Shown here: piece after piece, positions 41,262 to 50,452 of the stretch
Numbering within the stretch: the stretch's first letter is position 1
Layout: each line of letters starts with the position of its first letter
Assembly: GCA_048938385.1 (NCBI GenBank)
Contig: JBHLMG010000001.1
Coordinates: 192,001-256,000, forward strand
Length of the DNA stretch: 64,000 nucleotides
Reading direction: 5' to 3'
Source of the DNA: Promethearchaeota archaeon
Lineage (GTDB): Archaea > Asgardarchaeota > Hermodarchaeia > Hermodarchaeales > Hermodarchaeaceae
The notes under the pieces: generated by a model
Seen by the model: only the letters and a program-made list of their open reading frames with translations
Database searches by the model: none
What the model was told of the DNA's origin: nothing
Made by a program: the position numbers and the translations under genes

Positions 41262-41543
41262 ATGCAGGTTGTTGTTCGAACAATCGGACCATTTACTGAA
41301 ACTTTAGGCTTTCACCAGATTACTCTAGCCCTGAAAGGACATACTGTACAAGACCTCCTACAACAACTCTGTACAGAACGCGGAAAGGGATTCTGTAATG
41401 CAGTTTTTGATGAAAAGGGAAAACTCCGTCGTTATATCAAACTCCTTGTGAATGGGCGCGGGTTGCATGTGTTACAGGGATTGGATACACCATTATCCGA
41501 TGGGGATGTCATCGCAATATTTCCACCCGTCGCCGGAGGCTAA
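41262..41543 (+). CDS. MoaD/SAMP1-like ubiquitin-fold sulfur carrier, copy A
   Basis: LVNGR, LSDGDVIAIFPPVAGG with C-terminal GG. Confidence 0.9.
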   Translation: MQVVVRTIGPFTETLGFHQITLALKGHTVQDLLQQLCTERGKGFCNAVFDEKGKLRRYIKLLVNGRGLHVLQGLDTPLSDGDVIAIFPPVAGG

Positions 41544-42871
41544 AGGGTGATTCCTAATTTCTCCCAGAGGACTGGAACAACACGATTCAAGGCTTTTTCA
41601 ACCATTTCTGGCTTAATTGTCACTACTTGATGATTATTCACAATATGTTTGCCATTTACAAAGACATGCTCAACATCATGAGCGGTGCATCCATAGACGA
41701 TGTATCCATAGACTCCGGCGGGTAATATTGGGGTGACTCGTGGCTTGGGGTGAAGGATGACGATATCGGCGCGCTTCCCTGGTTCGATGGATCCGAGTTG
41801 GTCGCTTAATCCATAAATCTGTGCACCGTTTATTGTTGCCATTTCAATGACTTGTTGTGGTGTTGTCACTCGAGGATCGAGGTGGTGGACTTTGTGAATG
41901 AGGTACGCCGTACGAATGTTTTCGATCGCGTCGAAGATAAACCCGTCATTGCCTAAACAGACCGGAATCCCAAGCTCGTACATCTCTCGGACTGGGGCGA
42001 CACCGACAGCATTGTTCATGTTGCTCATTGGATTATGCGCCACTGTGGCCCCACTACCCCGAATTAATTCGAGTTCATCGCGGTTGATGTGAACACAGTG
42101 GGCTAGCACTACATCAGAACCGAGTACTCCGAGGTCAAACAGGCGTTCAATAGTGCGTTTATCGTATCGTTCGATGTTATGATAGACATCGATAAGCCCT
42201 TCACTAGTATGGATAGTAATCGGTGCGTGCAGTTCATCTGCTTGGGTACGAGTTTTTTGAATTAATTCATCACTGAGCGTAAAGGAGGCATGCAGACTAT
42301 ACATGCCATTTAGCAGCTCATCTGGGTTTTGCTCCAGTTTCTTTAGGAACCTAATGTTCTCTTTTAGTCCCCGTTCGCCTTCCTCCTTGGAGTTGCGTTC
42401 TGTCGCTTCAAAACCAAGGATGCCACGAATACCGACCTCCCTTACTCCCTTTGCTATTGCGTCTAATACCCCTTCTATTGAGTTAGGTCCTGAATATGTA
42501 TCGGCAAAACATGTTGTGCCACTTTTAACAAACTCGTAACATGAAGCTAAGGCGCTAGCATTAGCATCTTCATTTACGAAAGCGGTATCAACTTTCCACC
42601 AAATCCGGTCTAATATTTGTAAAAAATCCGTAGTGGGTTTAATATCGAGGGGTGCCCCTCGGAGCATTATTCCATAGAGATGCGTGTGCCCACAAATGAA
42701 CCCTGGCAAAACTATGCGGCCACGGCCATCAATTTCGTGATCGGCTCTATCCTTGATGTTTTTCCCGATTTTAGCGATCATCGAATCTTCAACAAGAACA
42801 TCGGTATTTTCTAGCACTTGCCGGTGTGCATTCATCGTTACGACGAGTGCGTTTCGAATCAGAATTTTCAT
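41540..42871 (-). CDS. ssnA: SsnA-like amidohydrolase
   Basis: GHTHLYG, DFLQILDRIWWKVD, GFEATERN, ENIRF, HASFT and HNPMSNMNNAVG match SsnA signature segments (from memory of the family). Confidence 0.82.
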   Translation of the reverse strand: MKILIRNALVVTMNAHRQVLENTDVLVEDSMIAKIGKNIKDRADHEIDGRGRIVLPGFICGHTHLYGIMLRGAPLDIKPTTDFLQILDRIWWKVDTAFVNEDANASALASCYEFVKSGTTCFADTYSGPNSIEGVLDAIAKGVREVGIRGILGFEATERNSKEEGERGLKENIRFLKKLEQNPDELLNGMYSLHASFTLSDELIQKTRTQADELHAPITIHTSEGLIDVYHNIERYDKRTIERLFDLGVLGSDVVLAHCVHINRDELELIRGSGATVAHNPMSNMNNAVGVAPVREMYELGIPVCLGNDGFIFDAIENIRTAYLIHKVHHLDPRVTTPQQVIEMATINGAQIYGLSDQLGSIEPGKRADIVILHPKPRVTPILPAGVYGYIVYGCTAHDVEHVFVNGKHIVNNHQVVTIKPEMVEKALNRVVPVLWEKLGITL

Positions 42872-42977
42872 GATAGCCCAACTCAAAGGATTAGAAAGAG
42901 GCTGAATTTCAGAAACTCTAGATAGTTGAGCAAGCCTTTAAGCCTTCCAATCCTCTTTTTTCTGGGCGTGTGTTTTC

Positions 42978-43475
42978 ATGAACAAATCACCCAACAAAGT
43001 TCTGGTCGTTGATCCAGAGAAATGCACAGGTTGTGGCATCTGTTCTCTCGTGTGTTCCTTTCGGCATACTCAAGAATACAATCCCGCACGAGCGCTACTT
43101 ACGATTATTCGAGATGAAAAGCACGGAATCAACATACCTGTCATTTGTCAGCATTGCGATGTACCGCTGTGTATGGAAAGCTGCCCGGCAGATGCAATAT
43201 TTCGTGATACCGAAACTAATGCTGTCTGTATCAACCAAACAAATTGTATTGGTTGCCATCAATGTCTAGTTGCCTGTCCATTTGGAGGAATCCATATCGA
43301 TCCTGCAGATGGACGCACAGTGAAATGCGACCTTTGTGAAGGTTATGCTATGTGCGCCCAATTTTGTCCCAGAGGAGCGTTGCTATATTTAAAGCCGGAC
43401 GAATTGACCGCTCGGCTTCGAGAGAAGGGGATTAAACGCGCTGCGGAATATCTTCATGTAATTACGAGGAAGTGA
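42978..43475 (+). CDS. Four-cluster 4Fe-4S electron-transfer subunit (DmsB/CooF-like)
   Basis: CTGCGICSLVC, CQHC..C..CP, CIGCHQC..CP, KCDLC..C..CP; 4 bp before the AOR gene. Confidence 0.92.
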   Translation: MNKSPNKVLVVDPEKCTGCGICSLVCSFRHTQEYNPARALLTIIRDEKHGINIPVICQHCDVPLCMESCPADAIFRDTETNAVCINQTNCIGCHQCLVACPFGGIHIDPADGRTVKCDLCEGYAMCAQFCPRGALLYLKPDELTARLREKGIKRAAEYLHVITRK

Positions 43476-43479
43476 AAAA

Positions 43480-45417
43480 ATGAGTGAAAATCACCCATAT
43501 TATGGTTATGCCGGTCGTATTGCGGAAGTCGATTTAACGAAATCCGAGGTGAAAATCACGCCCTTAGACCGAGATTTTGCCCGAAAATATCTCGGCGGAA
43601 CTGGGTTTGCGGCTCGGATCTTGTGGGATCGAGTGAAACCATCGACTGAGCCCCTCGATCCTGATAATCCCTTATTTTTCGGCATCGGACCAGTTACAGG
43701 CGCTTTCTTTTCACCCTCTGGGCGTTTTATGGTTGCCTATAAATCTCCTCTCACAGGGTTTTGGGGTGAAGCCCACTGTGGAGGCCATTGGGGACCCCAA
43801 CTCAAGTATGCTGGCTTTGATGCACTAGTTATTCAAGGAAAGGCATCATCACCAGTCTATCTCATGGTCCAGGACAAAGCTGTTTACATTCGTGATGCCG
43901 ACCACTTGTGGGGGCGTGACACCATGGAAACCACCGATACGATACGCGAGCTACACGGAGATAATGACATTGAGGTTGCAGCTATCGGAATAGGCGGAGA
44001 GAACCTCGTTCGGTATGCAGCCATAATCGGCTCTTATTATCGAGCTGCAGGTCGGGGAGGTGCGGGCGCGGTCATGGGCAGCAAGAATCTGAAAGCCGTG
44101 GCTGTCCGTGGGCTGGGAGGAGTCAAGGTGGCAAATCCCGGGAAGTTCATGGCTGCGGCTCGGAAAGCTTACAACCAGATGACCACTGGAAAATGGGGCG
44201 AGATGAATGAGGAATCTCTGGGAAAATATGGGACTACAAACCTCGTGACAGCAATTGGTGAAATCGGACGGCTTCCAACAAAGAATCACACGACAGGTGT
44301 GTTCGAAGATGCTGATGCTATTGGACCTGAAACAATTCGCCAAAAATACCGGACAAGCCGCGAATCGTGTTTTGGTTGTGCGTTACAATGCAAATTCACA
44401 TCTGAGGTTAAATCAGGTCCTTATCAAGTAATTACAGGAGGTCCTGAGTATGAAACACTCATGGCCTTCGGTAGTAATTGCCTGAATAGCAACATTGAAT
44501 CAATTCTGTACGCAAACCAGTTATGCAATAGGTATGGTCTAGACACAATCAGCACTGGCTGTACTATCGCCTTTCTTTTTGAAGCAGCCGAAAACGGCAT
44601 CATTACGCCAAATGAAGTAGGTGGACTTGACCTCTCTTGGGGTAATGATAAAACCATTATTGCTCTCGTCGAAAAAATTGCACACCGAAAAGGGATTGGA
44701 GACCTACTCGCTGAGGGATCATTACGCGTGGCACAAAAAATAGGTAAGGGTGCCGAACGGTTTGCTATCCATGTAAAAGGTATGGAGGCTTCTGGGCAGG
44801 ATCCACGGCCACAACAAAGCGTTGGCCTTACATACGCGACCAATGTACGCGGTGCCGATCATTTAAGGAGCCTCAGCTGCTATGAGGAGTTGGGTTTTCC
44901 GGATGTCGCAATAGAACGATTCGGAGAGGACCATGCTACTGAAGTCATGGATTTGCATACTACTAGCTTCAAAGGACATCTCATCAAGGATCAAGAGGAC
45001 CTGTACGTACTCGTTGATAGCATCATTCTTTGCAAGTACGGGACAATGTGGCCTCCTGTCTATTACTTTGATATCATGGCAGAAATGCTCAAACCCCTAA
45101 CTGGTTTTGACGAATTCAGTGAGGTACAACGACTTCGACTGGTTGCGGAGCGCATTAGTAATCTTAGGCGTTGTTTTAATGTCCGCGAAGGGGCAACACG
45201 CAAGAACGAACAGCTCCATCCCCGGTTTACCGAGGAGCCAATGCCTGAAGGGCCTGGCAAAGGGCGTGTCTGTAATCTAGATCCCATGCTTGACGAATAC
45301 TATGAAGTGAGAAACTGGACAAAAGAAGGACTCCCAAGGCGTTCCGAATTAAAACGGCTTGGTTTAGAAGATGTTGCTGATGAATTGGCAAAAACAGGAA
45401 AGGTGGTAGACGAATAA
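43480..45417 (+). CDS. Tungsten aldehyde:ferredoxin oxidoreductase family (AOR/WOR), copy A
   Basis: KSPLTG, GAVMGSKNLKA, CFGCALQC, GPEYET, YGLDTIS, RGADHL, LDEYY..R.W. Confidence 0.95.
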   Translation: MSENHPYYGYAGRIAEVDLTKSEVKITPLDRDFARKYLGGTGFAARILWDRVKPSTEPLDPDNPLFFGIGPVTGAFFSPSGRFMVAYKSPLTGFWGEAHCGGHWGPQLKYAGFDALVIQGKASSPVYLMVQDKAVYIRDADHLWGRDTMETTDTIRELHGDNDIEVAAIGIGGENLVRYAAIIGSYYRAAGRGGAGAVMGSKNLKAVAVRGLGGVKVANPGKFMAAARKAYNQMTTGKWGEMNEESLGKYGTTNLVTAIGEIGRLPTKNHTTGVFEDADAIGPETIRQKYRTSRESCFGCALQCKFTSEVKSGPYQVITGGPEYETLMAFGSNCLNSNIESILYANQLCNRYGLDTISTGCTIAFLFEAAENGIITPNEVGGLDLSWGNDKTIIALVEKIAHRKGIGDLLAEGSLRVAQKIGKGAERFAIHVKGMEASGQDPRPQQSVGLTYATNVRGADHLRSLSCYEELGFPDVAIERFGEDHATEVMDLHTTSFKGHLIKDQEDLYVLVDSIILCKYGTMWPPVYYFDIMAEMLKPLTGFDEFSEVQRLRLVAERISNLRRCFNVREGATRKNEQLHPRFTEEPMPEGPGKGRVCNLDPMLDEYYEVRNWTKEGLPRRSELKRLGLEDVADELAKTGKVVDE

Positions 45418-46604
45418 TGGCAGTGGATTTAAGCGTAAATATTGCGGGGATTCCTCTTCGTAATCCCGTTCTTACGGCTGCTGGACCCACAAGTCGTGAT
45501 GGTGAAACACTCGTCAAAGCCGCTAGAGGTGGGGTAGGCGGTTTAGTGGCGAAAACCATTAGCGTGAAACCTGCCGCAGTTCCCCGACCTAACATGCAGA
45601 CACTCGACAGAGGACAAAGCCAATGGTTGCTTGCGACAGCAATGCAACATCAAGTAGTACACCTTGAACGTATCAAGGTTCGTGGTGCTTACGGGTTACT
45701 AAATCATGAATTATGGAGCGATAAGCATTATCAAAAATGGCTCGATCACGAATATCCTCGTGCAAAGGAAACCGGCCTATCGCTCATCGCCTCGGTCGGA
45801 TATACACCCGAAGAACTAGCAAAGCTTGCCCCCCTCGTTCAAAAGGCTGGTGTCGATGGAATTGAGTTCAGCACCCATTATCTCGAAACGGACCCCAAAG
45901 TCTTTAATGAAGTAGCGAAAACGCTGCAAGAGGCGGTAGATATTCCGATTTTTGCTAAGATGAGTCCCCATGTGAAGGATTTAACCATCTTCACAAAAGC
46001 GGTGGATCGGTATGTGGATGGTTTTGTCGCCATCAATACACTTGGACCGTGTCTTCACATTGACATAGAAACAGGTCGTCCTTTACTTGGTGGACCGGGT
46101 GGGGTTGGATGGCTTTCAGGACCGGCTATAAAACCACTTGCAGTTCGGTGCGTTGCTGACATCGCTCAGGGCACATCCAAACCAGTTGTCGCTGTAGGTG
46201 GTGTTAGCACTGGAGCTGATGCCATTGAGTTCTTTATGGTTGGAGCTTCAGCAGTTCAAGTTTGTACTGCTGCCATCCTCGAAGGGCATTCAGTTTACGG
46301 GCGTATTGCTAGAGAGATCGCAGCATTCCTTGAGTTGCATGATAAAGCATCGCCTGAAGATATTCGAGGACAAGCGTTGAAGCATTTACCAAGAGACACA
46401 CTGCGTGTTGAAAGCCTTCCCCCAACAGTGAATGAAGAATCCTGCTCTGGCTGTGGGTTATGCACTACATCCTGCACATATTCAGCAATTTCTGTCAATC
46501 CAGAAACGACAAAGGCTCAAGTAGACTCTAACCTGTGTTATGGGTGTGGTGTGTGTGTAAGTATCTGTCCTCACAGAGCCCTTTCTTTTAACCCATCAAA
46601 ATAA
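45417..46604 (+). CDS. FMN-dependent dihydroorotate/dihydropyrimidine dehydrogenase-like reductase with a C-terminal 2x[4Fe-4S] domain (PreA/YgfK-N-like)
   Basis: NPVLTAAGP, KTI, KMSP, AINT, LSGPAIKP, GGV, GASAVQVCT and two CxxCxxCxxxC motifs. The ELNxSCP loop is replaced by EFSTHY. Confidence 0.85.
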   Translation: MAVDLSVNIAGIPLRNPVLTAAGPTSRDGETLVKAARGGVGGLVAKTISVKPAAVPRPNMQTLDRGQSQWLLATAMQHQVVHLERIKVRGAYGLLNHELWSDKHYQKWLDHEYPRAKETGLSLIASVGYTPEELAKLAPLVQKAGVDGIEFSTHYLETDPKVFNEVAKTLQEAVDIPIFAKMSPHVKDLTIFTKAVDRYVDGFVAINTLGPCLHIDIETGRPLLGGPGGVGWLSGPAIKPLAVRCVADIAQGTSKPVVAVGGVSTGADAIEFFMVGASAVQVCTAAILEGHSVYGRIAREIAAFLELHDKASPEDIRGQALKHLPRDTLRVESLPPTVNEESCSGCGLCTTSCTYSAISVNPETTKAQVDSNLCYGCGVCVSICPHRALSFNPSK

Positions 46605-46619
46605 GGTGAACTTGACGCG

Positions 46620-46907
46620 ATGTTAAAAAAACCAAAAGTTACCGTTCGTATGTTCACGAGCCTCCGAGCCTTAACAGGAACCAGAGAAACGGAATTGGAA
46701 GCATCTGATGTGCAAGAGGTCATTGATATTCTAGGTAACCGTTTTGGAGAGAAGTTTAACCAAATGCTACTTGAACCCGATGGGTCGTTAAAAAGATACT
46801 TCCATGTTCTCGTTAACGGACGGCACATTCGGCTTCAACAAGGGCTACAAACATGCCTCTCTGATGGTGATGTTGTAGCGATTTTTCCTCCGATTGGAGG
46901 AGGTTAG
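46620..46907 (+). CDS. MoaD/SAMP1-like protein, copy B
   Basis: LVNGR, LSDGDVVAIFPPIGGG. Confidence 0.9.
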   Translation: MLKKPKVTVRMFTSLRALTGTRETELEASDVQEVIDILGNRFGEKFNQMLLEPDGSLKRYFHVLVNGRHIRLQQGLQTCLSDGDVVAIFPPIGGG

Positions 46908-46920
46908 CTAAACAGCTTGC

Positions 46921-47691
46921 TTACACTTTCTTTGCTTTGCGTATTGCTGTAATTGTTTCTCTTAGGGCTTTACCTTTGTCCCGTAAGATATTTCGTTCAA
47001 TGACTGTTCCCTGAACGATAATATTCGCTCCTGCTTTAGATACAGCTGCAGCTTGTGAAGGCGTGTTGATTCCTCCCCCCACAGCGAGAGGGGTGTCTAA
47101 TTTACTAGCTACCGCTTTTACCATTGGCAGGGGGACTGCGTTTTCAACACCTGATCCTGCTTCGAGGTAAATTAATTGAAATCCCATGTATTGGGCTGCG
47201 AGTGCGTATCCAAGGGCGATTTCGGGCTTGTCTCTAGGAATCAGACGTGCATCACCGACATATCCTGCAGTACCTCCTGGCTGAACAATAAGGTAAGCCA
47301 TTGATATCGGTTCTAAGTTAAACCCCTTGATGTACCGAGCTGCCAAGGTTTGAGCATCAATCATCCAATAGGTTGTTCGTGAGTTCAACAAACTCATGAA
47401 AAAAACAGCGTCTGCATTTCGAGACAGACCTGATACATTTCCTGGAAAGAGAATAACGGGGATATCTACTTGTTCTTTGATTCTTGTGAGAGTTTCATCA
47501 ACAATCCCTAAAGCTGTAGACCCTCCAACCATTATACCATTTGTACCAGCGGCTTCAGCAAAATGAGCGATTTGAGCCGCTTCTGTGGAGGATTGTTTTG
47601 CAGAGTCAGGATCAATAAGGGTGAGATGAACCACTCTCTCTTTTTGAAGAGTATTAAGAATCGTTTTCCAGGTAGGACCCATAGCAGTCAT
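46921..47691 (-). CDS. Geranylgeranylglyceryl phosphate synthase
   Basis: LTLIDPD, IMVGGS, LFPG, FFMSLLNS, YLEAGSG, VGGGI. Confidence 0.93.
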   Translation of the reverse strand: MTAMGPTWKTILNTLQKERVVHLTLIDPDSAKQSSTEAAQIAHFAEAAGTNGIMVGGSTALGIVDETLTRIKEQVDIPVILFPGNVSGLSRNADAVFFMSLLNSRTTYWMIDAQTLAARYIKGFNLEPISMAYLIVQPGGTAGYVGDARLIPRDKPEIALGYALAAQYMGFQLIYLEAGSGVENAVPLPMVKAVASKLDTPLAVGGGINTPSQAAAVSKAGANIIVQGTVIERNILRDKGKALRETITAIRKAKKV

Positions 47692-47737
47692 TTTTCCACC
47701 CTAATTTGATGCATGAGGTCTTGGACTTTTAAGTATG

Positions 47738-48415
47738 CTACCGTTGAGCCAAGATTTTAGCAATTCCTGGGAAAACCTGTGCAGTTCGCTTATCCCAGTC
47801 CACAGTGACCATTTTGCGCAATTCGAACCAGCGAAGGTAGCTTTGTACTTTCATTTCTGTTGTTCTGAGATTTTTCGCCAAATCAATAAAGGATATTTTT
47901 CCACTCGTCCCGAAGGCTCGTAATATGGGACTCCATTCATAGGTGATGAGCATCACCATGGCTGGAAGTAACTTCTCCAGGTTATACTTGGATTTACAGC
48001 TAATTGGAATGATTGGAACTCCGACCATGAAACTCAAATCATGGCGAATCCGTTCAGGACTTCGAGCCGCACTCAAATCTTGCTTGTTAGCTACTACGAT
48101 ACAGGGAACATTCGGAAGTAAGTCGCTGATTTCAGTCCAAATGTATCGAGCTTCCCCGTCTCCCTCCGGATTACTTGCATCAACCACAAATAGAATTCCA
48201 TCTGCCCCCTCCGAAATAATACGGCGTAAGACTTTGAACCTTACTAGCCCGGGCGTTCCGAATAGTCGAATAGGAACCTGGTGAACCTCTGCCACACCGT
48301 GATCAAGACCAACAGTTGTGCCATTTGCTTGAATATTAATGACCTTACCCTTAGCTAGGCGTTCGATTAATGTGCTTTTTCCAGAAACATGAGGCCCTGT
48401 CACCAGCACTTTCAC
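47738..48415 (-). CDS. MglA/CvnD-like small GTPase with a C-terminal winged-helix-like extension
   Basis: G1 GPHVSGKST, TTVGLDHG, FGTPGLVRF, G4 NKQD, G5 SCK; C-terminal ISFIDLAKNL...VQSYLRWFELRKMV. Confidence 0.85.
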   Translation of the reverse strand: MKVLVTGPHVSGKSTLIERLAKGKVINIQANGTTVGLDHGVAEVHQVPIRLFGTPGLVRFKVLRRIISEGADGILFVVDASNPEGDGEARYIWTEISDLLPNVPCIVVANKQDLSAARSPERIRHDLSFMVGVPIIPISCKSKYNLEKLLPAMVMLITYEWSPILRAFGTSGKISFIDLAKNLRTTEMKVQSYLRWFELRKMVTVDWDKRTAQVFPGIAKILAQR

Positions 48416-48526: not shown

Positions 48527-50452
48527 TCATTCCGGCAGTTCGATCCCCTGAGTAGTAAGATCGCGCACTACATCCTTAAGTCCCACACGCTCAAGGGTTT
48601 GCTTAGTTGGCAGCCCATCTCTTAACCGCCAACCTCGCTGTTCATAGTATTCATCCAGCATTTGGTCAAGTTCAACTACTTGGCCCTTTGACGGTCCCTC
48701 TGGGGCGGGTGTGTGGGTTAGTCGTCGTGGAAGCGCATCATCTTTTCGGCGAATCCCTTCTCGAACATTGAATCCGCGATTTAAGTTAACGATTCGCTCG
48801 CCAATTAATCGAAACTTGGCTTCTGTAAATTTTATTCCGACAGTCACATCAAAGGTCGCTACTACATCCTCGTAAAAGAGGACTGGGGGGATTAATGTTC
48901 CATACTTGCACACACCTAAAGATTCGACGACTGCACAAAAATCCTCGTTCTCCTTTACCATGACACCTTTATACTTCGGATTCAATCGGTCACCGATTTC
49001 AGGTAAATACGCTCTCCCATAACGAATACCTATCTCCTCATCAAACCCAACTTCATCCAGGACCGGGAAGGCATACAGATGGTCTGCACCCCGCGCTGCC
49101 GTCGCCGACGCTAAACCCATCGACTTTTGTGCACGAGGTTCTTGCCCTGCAATTTCTTGTTTCTTGCAGTGCATCACGAATTTCTCAGTTCCTCGACCAA
49201 TTTTTTGCGCGGCACGATAACTTCCTTCAGCCAGGATATCGCCGAACCCTTCACGCTTGGCAATCATGTGAATTAGTTTGATTATGGTTTTGTGGTTTCC
49301 CCAGCTCAAATCAATCCCACCAGTATCTTCAGCAGTAATTAATCCTTCATCCCAGGCTTCCATCGCCCAACTTATCGTAGCACCAGTTGAAATTGTGTCG
49401 AGTCCGTATAGATTCGAGATGTGATGTCCATACAATATTGATTCTAGGTTATCATTACCACAACGACTCCCTAGAGCTGCTTGGGATTCATATTCAGGGC
49501 TTCCACCACAATAGGCGTATGGACCAGTTTTGACGAGGGTGTATCTTCCACAGCGTTGTAAACAAGCGTAATCTGCCCTAGGCTTCACAAGGTACTGGTT
49601 CTTAATAGCTTCACCACTAATCTTTTGGTATTGAGCAAAAACTCCTGATCGCATGTTGTAACTAGGAAGTCGACCAATTTCTTGCATCAGTTCAACAAGA
49701 TTCGTCGTTCCGTACTTAGCCCGGCTCGCTGTAAAAGGACTATCCAACATTTTTTGGTGTAATTTTTCTATTACCTCAAGGTATCTGTCAGGTTTGGCTA
49801 TTGAAATATCTTGACTCCCACGGACAGCTACGGCTTTCAGATTCTTGCTCCCCATGACCGCCCCCAAGCCCGTTCTTGCTGCGGCACGATCATAATCGTT
49901 AATTATGGCTGCATAGCGAACGAGGTTCTCCCCAGCTTGACCAATGCATGAGACTCGAAGACCCGGATCACCTTGGTTTTCCTTAATTATCTCCTCTGTT
50001 TCGTTTGTATCTCGACCCCACAACTCCGTGGCATCTAACAGACGGGCAACACCGTTGTCAATGAATAAATACACAGGACTCCTTGCACGCCCTGTAACGA
50101 CGATAGCATCAAATCCAGCGAATTTTAATTCAGGTCCCCAATGCCCTGCTGAATGGGCTTCTCCAAAGATGCCTGTTAACGGGGATTTTGCGGCTACCAC
50201 ATAACGTGAAGCTTGGGGCCAAAGGGTTCCAGTAAAAGGTCCTGTTGCCCAAATCAGGACATTTTCGGGAGTGAGGGGATCTATTGAGGGTCCTACCTTG
50301 TCGTATAAAATTCTAGAAGCGAATCCTTGACCACCCAAGTAGGTAAGGGCGAACTCTCGGTCCAGTGGAATGGGCTTACAATGACCCTTTGTCATATCAA
50401 CATGTAATAGTTGTCCAGCATATCCACCAAGTTTTGTTTTCGACTTCGTCAT
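48527..50452 (-). CDS. Tungsten AOR/WOR family oxidoreductase, copy B
   Basis: KSPLTG, GAVMGSKNLKA, PEYES, YGLDTIS, RGADHL. The Fe-S motif reads DYACLQRC. Confidence 0.95.
   Translation of the reverse strand: MTKSKTKLGGYAGQLLHVDMTKGHCKPIPLDREFALTYLGGQGFASRILYDKVGPSIDPLTPENVLIWATGPFTGTLWPQASRYVVAAKSPLTGIFGEAHSAGHWGPELKFAGFDAIVVTGRARSPVYLFIDNGVARLLDATELWGRDTNETEEIIKENQGDPGLRVSCIGQAGENLVRYAAIINDYDRAAARTGLGAVMGSKNLKAVAVRGSQDISIAKPDRYLEVIEKLHQKMLDSPFTASRAKYGTTNLVELMQEIGRLPSYNMRSGVFAQYQKISGEAIKNQYLVKPRADYACLQRCGRYTLVKTGPYAYCGGSPEYESQAALGSRCGNDNLESILYGHHISNLYGLDTISTGATISWAMEAWDEGLITAEDTGGIDLSWGNHKTIIKLIHMIAKREGFGDILAEGSYRAAQKIGRGTEKFVMHCKKQEIAGQEPRAQKSMGLASATAARGADHLYAFPVLDEVGFDEEIGIRYGRAYLPEIGDRLNPKYKGVMVKENEDFCAVVESLGVCKYGTLIPPVLFYEDVVATFDVTVGIKFTEAKFRLIGERIVNLNRGFNVREGIRRKDDALPRRLTHTPAPEGPSKGQVVELDQMLDEYYEQRGWRLRDGLPTKQTLERVGLKDVVRDLTTQGIELPE

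Follow-up and report, generated by a model that had tools for sequence, protein, structure and literature searches.

A probable UacX-type flavoprotein in Asgard archaea, with genes of the aldehyde oxidoreductase family standing where bacteria carry xanthine dehydrogenases

Certain gut bacteria degrade purines by way of 2,8-dioxopurine, a pathway described in 2025 in papers that make no mention of archaea (PMC12507026; bioRxiv 10.1101/2025.04.24.650524). In these bacteria, xanthine dehydrogenase (XDH) family enzymes, XdhA and XdhD, make urate and then 2,8-dioxopurine. UacX of C. difficile, supplied with SsnA and reduced viologen, turns 2,8-dioxopurine into ureidomethyl-hydantoin (Li et al., PMC12507026); in E. 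coli, the reduction is carried out by YgfK, or DOPOR (bioRxiv 10.1101/2025.04.24.650524). Here we consider 64,000 nucleotides—'the window'—from an Asgard archaeon of the family Hermodarchaeaceae (assembly GCA_048938385.1, contig JBHLMG010000001.1, positions 192,001 to 256,000). The flavoprotein encoded at 45417–46604 is, very probably, an archaeal UacX, a new member of a family that already has a name. The genes that stand where XdhD stands in C. difficile, however, belong to the aldehyde oxidoreductase (AOR) family, and we consider it moderately probable, judging from gene content, that enzymes of this family hydroxylate and dehydroxylate purines here in place of XDH.

The flavoprotein gene and its principal motifs are as follows:

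45417–46604, + strand: UacX-type reductase with flavin mononucleotide (FMN) and two 4Fe-4S clusters, 395 amino acids, predicted from family, motifs and tree to reduce 2,8-dioxopurine
45702–45719, + strand: NHELWS, motif on the substrate side (the family has NxELWS, YgfK has NTEWS)
45861–45881, + strand: active-site loop IEFSTHY, residues 149–155, in place of ELNxSCP; H154 and Y155 are invariant
46443–46568, + strand: two CxxCxxCxxxC 4Fe-4S motifs (C343–C353 and C374–C384), all cysteines invariant

The reading frame contains no internal stops. It encodes a PF01180 FMN barrel (DHO_dh, E 1e-32 in a domain scan) and a ferredoxin domain with two Fer4 motifs, both intact as the initial annotation had it, and no flavin adenine dinucleotide (FAD)/NAD(P)H domain. 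The AlphaFold2 model (pLDDT 80) matches the folds of dihydropyrimidine dehydrogenase best, and then DHODH-B. The nearest named homologues, at 85–88%, are from Ca. Hermodarchaeota. Automatic annotation calls the protein and its homologues dihydroorotate or dihydrouracil dehydrogenases, and the ESM Atlas likewise offers only DHODH-type names; many proteins so labelled are probably misnamed. A hairpin insertion of ~25 residues (residues 66–92; 45612–45692) occurs in Hermodarchaeota and several other archaeal homologues, but neither in Thorarchaeota nor in bacterial UacX.

The initial annotation drew attention to the loss of the catalytic cysteine, and this turns out, by the count of homologues, to be a trait of the whole family. 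The motif E-x-S-x-H is present in 119 of 120 archaeal-side homologues and in 119 of 120 clostridial ones; ExNxSxP occurs in none of the 120 top homologues; and S152, H154, Y155, N96, E98 and W100 are invariant among 32 aligned sequences. Because the motif and its key residues are conserved in this way, the altered loop reflects neither chance nor decay, and a pseudogene can be ruled out. When the loop is read without gaps against that of pig dihydropyrimidine dehydrogenase, S152 coincides with the Asn that binds the substrate, and Y155 with Cys671; in a profile comparison (hhalign), the His of YgfK falls on that same column or beside it. Either H154 or Y155 may therefore be the proton donor, and a His/Tyr loop is the likely replacement for the catalytic Cys in UacX and YgfK both.

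Placement in the UacX family comes from the company these proteins keep. The top bacterial matches, from Cetobacterium and Clostridium (35–39% identity, E 1e-74 to 1e-94), lie among ssnA, dpaL, ygeY, hydA, D-aminoacylase and XDH genes, that is, in uric-acid clusters, with no ygfK in the stretches displayed. The layout is that of the C. difficile cluster in which UacX was named and assayed (PMC12507026). In our tree, the archaeal protein and the bacterial proteins at the UacX position fall together in a 54-row clade with the NxELWS and ExSxH motifs (SH-aLRT 92), apart from the Cys-bearing PyrD and PreA. (This tree and the AOR tree discussed below are quick IQ-TREE runs with SH-aLRT support only, from which near-identical rows of the query's own genus were excluded; some Thorarchaeota rows were excluded from the flavoprotein tree as well.) Because it groups with the UacX-position proteins, we name 2,8-dioxopurine as its probable substrate, with fair confidence. 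The initial annotation had arrived at a ferredoxin-fed reductase, related to YgfK, for a heterocycle other than a pyrimidine, and this idea is supported; what it overlooked is that the family had already been named and assayed, so that the flavoprotein alone is not new. It overlooked, too, the main point, which is the presence of AOR-family genes where other organisms have xanthine dehydrogenases.

The likeness to YgfK is real but remote. The YgfK segments that the initial annotation named are indeed present, and IEFSTHY aligns with TLSTMH in YgfK. BLAST finds no significant match between the two proteins, however, and the profile alignment, although collinear over 283 columns, is weak (probability 27%, E 7e-4). 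At 395 amino acids versus ~1000, and lacking the fused FAD/NADPH domains, the protein is not itself a YgfK.

Relatives of the flavoprotein turn up in other settings. A second clade of DHOD-like proteins with Cys-poor or otherwise altered loops (E-x-P-x-x) is found at L047:9248-10426, L114:2453-3661 and L115:9959-11185, in two cases beside an SsnA-like gene. In an Anaerolineales cluster (L111:4005-20284), three such genes stand side by side: UacX, a YgfK-like one, and another DHOD-like one whose loop is ELSMMH. In Anaerolineae (L107:8865-11068), UacX follows an open reading frame (ORF) that is luciferase-like, to judge from the start of its sequence, and a sugar/nucleoside-type ABC transporter; this arrangement may be relevant to the F420-type reductase that has been proposed for Chloroflexota (PMC12507026). 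On a Clostridium novyi plasmid (L003:1-25071), a uric-acid cluster lies ~10 kb from a gene annotated as C2 toxin component II.

The idea that AORs replace XDH draws on the distribution of these genes among Asgard archaea. We surveyed 201 Asgard genomes, 70–100% complete, leaving one Cys-type PreA match out of the per-genome count of UacX. UacX is present in 76: with the AOR subgroup described below in 57, with XDH in 18, with neither in one (81% complete), and with both in none. In the archaeon's own family, UacX and the AOR subgroup each occur in 14 of 18 genomes, SsnA in 13, and XDH in none. In the Thorarchaeota-like family, UacX and the AOR subgroup each occur in 41 of 43, SsnA in 39, and XDH again in none. 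A third family, f4, shows the reverse: UacX in 17 of 21 genomes, XDH in 20, and the AOR subgroup in none. The clusters tell the same story; in f4, XdhA- and XdhD-like genes lie beside UacX and SsnA, whereas in the other Asgard lineages UacX is flanked by AOR1 and AOR2. SsnA and carbamoyltransferase 1 occur in the same lineages as UacX, and also in a further family, f21, which has XDH.

Two of these lineages have peculiarities of their own. In f21 (L050 and L194), SsnA, carbamoyltransferase and XDH genes are present with no UacX match above threshold. Next to SsnA, L050 carries a Cys-type PreA; L194 has a 1074-amino acid ORF near SsnA. A different reductase may serve in this family. In Thorarchaeota (L061:7310-15053), UacX and AOR1 have conserved neighbours: genes for an M24 peptidase, a protein of ~300 amino acids and PAS-domain sensors. 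The peptidase may take the place of YgeY, and the sensors may control the cluster.

AOR-type clusters are not confined to Asgard archaea. They occur also in Nitrososphaeria, Bathyarchaeia and other Thermoproteota, and one locus, L195, combines all three AOR clades with SsnA and UacX; also present there are carbamate kinase, a hydantoinase-like gene, a deaminase, two carbamoyltransferases and two pyridoxal phosphate (PLP) enzymes, with no XDH gene in that stretch. Approached from the AOR side, the association persists. Among eight AOR1 homologues picked for their long contigs, four have UacX directly downstream; three more adjoin adenine deaminases and SsnA, PurP-like genes and QueT, or a phosphoribosyltransferase and an NMT1 transporter; and the eighth has an AllG-like gene alone. 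Seven of the eight, then, adjoin UacX or purine-related genes. The homologue at L200:1-9085, between two PurP-like genes and a QueT transporter, suggests purine interconversion or salvage in addition to breakdown. The AOR subgroup is absent from three Desulfurococcales that have UacX and SsnA, and these carry three to four XDH-family genes.

AOR1 and AOR2 possess AFOR_N and AFOR_C domains, the 4Fe-4S cysteines, and the second-shell Thr, Tyr, Glu and His residues; AOR1 matches P. furiosus AOR at all four of the latter and at the cluster cysteines. The subgroup comprises three paralogous clades separate from the five other AORs of the same genome (SH-aLRT 99, in a tree that includes no characterized AOR). 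All three clades span Asgard archaea, Nitrososphaeria and Thermoproteota, and AOR1 also occurs in Bathyarchaeia.

In the window, the genes of interest around the flavoprotein are these:

33524–34795, + strand: ThrC (threonine synthase)-like PLP enzyme, predicted stand-in for the diaminopropionate lyase YgeX
37578–38597, + strand: carbamoyltransferase 2, 34% identical to YgeW
38641–39714, − strand: carbamoyltransferase 1, 32% identical to YgeW and predicted to have a YgeW-like role
39748–41148, − strand: amidohydrolase of the purine/nucleoside deaminase group, kept beside AOR1 in Hermod- and Thorarchaeota
41229–41543, − strand: second MoaD-like ORF, recognized only by its C-terminal GG and its likeness to the other copy
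41540–42886, − strand: SsnA-like amidohydrolase, for which SsnA is the best model, running divergently from the AOR1 operon and predicted to perform the first ring opening
42978–43475, + strand: polyferredoxin small subunit of AOR1, with 16 invariant cysteines
43480–45417, + strand: AOR1, AOR/WOR-family catalytic subunit, purine-cluster clade 1; its stop overlaps the start of UacX
46620–46907, + strand: MoaD/SAMP1-type sulfur carrier for pterin cofactor synthesis, found by family scan
48527–50452, − strand: AOR2, purine-cluster clade 2
50449–50946, − strand: polyferredoxin small subunit of AOR2

The SsnA-like gene is 2.5 kb upstream of UacX, and both carbamoyltransferases and the PLP enzyme are within 12 kb. 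The latter is 49–54% identical to the PLP enzymes of ten other archaeal purine clusters. The carbamoyltransferases (37578–39714) are convergent paralogues, 47% identical to each other, and both are kept, along with carbamate kinase, in several archaeal purine clusters. The rest of the genome (2.48 Mb, 90% complete) supplies AOR3, on a separate contig, and a HyuA-like gene, carbamate kinase and adenine deaminase on others. It contains no XDH-family gene (PF02738) and no match to YgeX, and its M20 proteins are only 23–28% identical to YgeY. AMP phosphorylase was not found in this genome either, and we dropped the idea of a link to the Rubisco nucleoside route. Between the UacX operon and AOR2 (46921–48415) are a GGGP synthase of the PcrB family and a small GTPase-like ORF; these, and the GlmS-like and TatD-like genes at 34860–37551, look like unrelated housekeeping neighbours. 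Scans for promoters and terminators gave a signal no better than chance.

From the sequences, family placements, gene clusters and co-occurrence set out above we infer the activities, the metal, the acid residue and the matching of AORs to steps, as follows. 2,8-Dioxopurine would be made by three AOR-family paralogues, each paired with a polyferredoxin subunit. There are three steps from hypoxanthine to 2,8-dioxopurine, and three AOR paralogues are kept; in the simplest scheme each would attend to one position, two hydroxylating C2 and C8 (hypoxanthine to xanthine to urate) and one dehydroxylating C6 (urate to 2,8-dioxopurine). UacX, its FMN supplied with low-potential electrons through the two 4Fe-4S clusters, would then reduce 2,8-dioxopurine to the 6,7-dihydro compound, with H154 and/or Y155 as proton donor in place of Cys, and SsnA would open the ring, drawing the reaction forward. 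A HyuA-like hydrolase, the two carbamoyltransferases with carbamate kinase, and the PLP lyase would complete the conversion to pyruvate, ammonia, CO2 and ATP. Because there are two carbamoyltransferases and no close YgeY, we suggest that each of the two ureido groups is released as carbamoyl phosphate, perhaps by the two enzymes. Starting from hypoxanthine, such a route would be redox-balanced: the two oxidations would release four electrons, and the C6 dehydroxylation and the UacX step would consume four, by way of 4Fe-4S chains. Aldehyde oxidation and the hydroxylation of purine C–H bonds are the same type of reaction, in which water-derived oxygen is placed on an electrophilic carbon; members of the xanthine oxidase family carry out both. 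It is plausible, therefore, that AORs might also act on both.

Put at its fullest, our reading is that three paralogous tungsten AORs serve as position-specific purine hydroxylases and a urate 6-dehydroxylase, and so fully replace molybdenum XDHs in a redox-balanced fermentation of purines that Asgard archaea, and other anaerobic ones, would carry out, with the two carbamoyltransferases perhaps yielding two ATP per purine. We hold to this with modest confidence, just enough to prefer it. Several things weigh against it. The SsnA-like gene scores below its curated cut-off (382 versus 444 bits), and orthology of the flavoprotein to the assayed protein, Q181U4, is judged from cluster position, tree and motifs. 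The 76 Asgard cases are not independent but represent about six lineages, approximately four with AOR and two with XDH, and the genomes range from 70 to 100% in completeness. Three of the four non-Asgard genomes with AOR-type clusters hold XDH-family genes as well (next to allantoinase-like, FdrA or carbamate kinase genes), as do two Hadarchaea with both types; where both occur in one non-Asgard genome they may be molybdenum and tungsten alternatives, or act on other substrates. Tungsten is assigned from family membership alone, since no WtpA- or TupA-type tungstate-binding protein was found in the archaeon's genome. Nor is a fixed complex of AOR and UacX indicated. The initial annotation pointed to the overlap of one nucleotide between the AOR stop (TAA, 45415–45417) and the flavoprotein start (ATG, 45417–45419), and took the two to be translationally coupled parts of a redox module. 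The overlap is as described, but short gaps and overlaps are frequent in the window, and this one is kept in the archaeon's own genus but not in Thorarchaeota, where the gaps run from ~40 to 4000 bp, sometimes with inserted genes. Because it is conserved in so few lineages it is no proof of a complex: clusters and co-occurrence support membership in one pathway, rather than in one physical module.

Three other explanations need to be weighed against the purine-hydroxylase reading. The flavoprotein could be UacX, as proposed, and the AORs ordinary aldehyde oxidases that merely supply it with reduced ferredoxin, the 2,8-dioxopurine coming from outside or from an enzyme that we failed to recognize. 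A module of such a kind was what the initial annotation proposed; the canonical aldehyde-oxidizing residues are retained in AOR1, whose intact active site would suit aldehydes equally well; and AOR3 of Thorarchaeota adjoins a branched-chain aminotransferase and a glutamate dehydrogenase, as befits ordinary aldehyde oxidation. The coexistence of AOR clusters and XDH in some genomes points the same way. What this leaves unexplained is why a genome with five further AORs should maintain three dedicated paralogues in purine clusters, why AOR1 remains beside purine genes even where UacX is not adjacent, and why XDH is missing from every one of the 57 Asgard genomes that combine UacX with the AOR subgroup. 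We judge it unlikely, though far from negligible.

Alternatively, the archaeal enzyme might have drifted to another heterocycle—xanthine, urate, an 8-oxopurine, a pterin or a modified base, for example—with the AORs acting on aldehyde or ring intermediates of a variant route. Its identity to bacterial UacX is, after all, just 35–39%, and its cluster differs: it has a pair of carbamoyltransferases and an additional deaminase, lacks YgeX and any close YgeY and, in Thorarchaeota, includes the M24 peptidase. Against this, the pocket motifs NxELWS and ExSxHY also occur in bacterial proteins of XDH-type uric-acid clusters, and the same archaeal subfamily accompanies XDH-family genes in Desulfurococcales and Synergistales; drift strikes us as improbable. 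Even less credible is a pyrimidine enzyme, whether a ferredoxin-dependent reductase of the PydAc/PreA type or PyrD. The fold and domain order are the same, PreA is the best NCBIfam match (NF006183), the automatic names agree, and PydAc, too, lacks an FAD part (PMC7332683). The protein, however, has no catalytic Cys, belongs to a separate clade, and falls short of all curated cut-offs: 184 bits versus 335 for PreA, and 171 versus 270 for PyrD (DHODH class 1). No PreT or PyrK gene adjoins it, as the initial annotation observed, its neighbours are purine rather than pyr genes, and a true Cys-type PyrD is encoded elsewhere, in a pyrimidine biosynthesis cluster on contig C28. We rejected identity with PyrD, and with PreA, PydA or PydAc, on these grounds.

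So far, it is by purine hydroxylation that the molybdenum xanthine oxidase family has been defined. If the purine-hydroxylase reading is correct, an unrelated tungsten scaffold has come to perform this chemistry too, and one clade of orphan AORs gains a testable substrate. The 2,8-dioxopurine pathway would extend to Asgard and to other sediment and hot-spring archaea, and Thor- and Hermodarchaeota could draw nitrogen and ATP from the debris of nucleic acids. A literature search of incomplete coverage (tungsten or AOR with purine degradation; Thor- or Hermodarchaeota with purines) produced no title or abstract reporting such a link, and purines go unmentioned in a review of the AOR/WOR family from 2025 (PMC12096430). 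The genomic setting, with AOR-family genes in the place of XDH, is the new part; a purine role for the AOR family has not been reported before in the literature searched.

How, then, does the system compare with those already known? UacX of C. difficile (Q181U4) has the same PF01180 barrel and ferredoxin domain, the same lack of an FAD/NAD(P)H part, and the same association with SsnA, and the UacX-position proteins of Cetobacterium and Clostridium share the query's motifs, although not its hairpin. The archaeal system departs from that of C. difficile in its host, in having AOR-family genes where XdhD stands, in having two carbamoyltransferases instead of UacY and YgeY, and in having a ThrC-like lyase instead of YgeX. 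Because it lacks XdhD/DOPDH (there is no PF02738 match in this genome or in 18 relatives), YgeX and YgeY, and has the ThrC-like enzyme and a second carbamoyltransferase instead, we regard it as a variant of the 2,8-dioxopurine pathway rather than the canonical form. YgfK (1032 amino acids) catalyses the step that is predicted for the archaeal protein, and its FMN domain, remotely collinear, likewise has no Cys in the loop, but it carries its FAD and NADPH domains fused. PydAc, PreA and dihydropyrimidine dehydrogenase share the fold, the FMN-binding lysines and the C-terminal 4Fe-4S domain, and PydAc is also ferredoxin-fed, with two ferredoxin domains to the query's one; all of these, however, have Cys in ELNxSCP and reduce uracil, whereas the query's loop is shorter and Cys-less. 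AOR1 resembles P. furiosus AOR (1AOR), A. aromaticum AOR (8C0Z) and WOR1 (9MQX) in fold (TM 0.88–0.91; 36–39% identity), in its second-shell residues and in its polyferredoxin partner. It differs in motifs near the active site that are peculiar to its clade—ESHxGG, GQDxR or GQEPR, RGADHL and a W/IPP insert—and known enzymes in the AOR/WOR family act on aldehydes, sulfonates and benzoyl-CoA. With XdhA and XdhD (DOPDH), of the molybdenum(-selenium) xanthine oxidase family, the AORs would share their predicted reactions, and they share a place in the gene cluster; in fold and cofactor family the two are unrelated, and the one would be a non-homologous replacement for the other.

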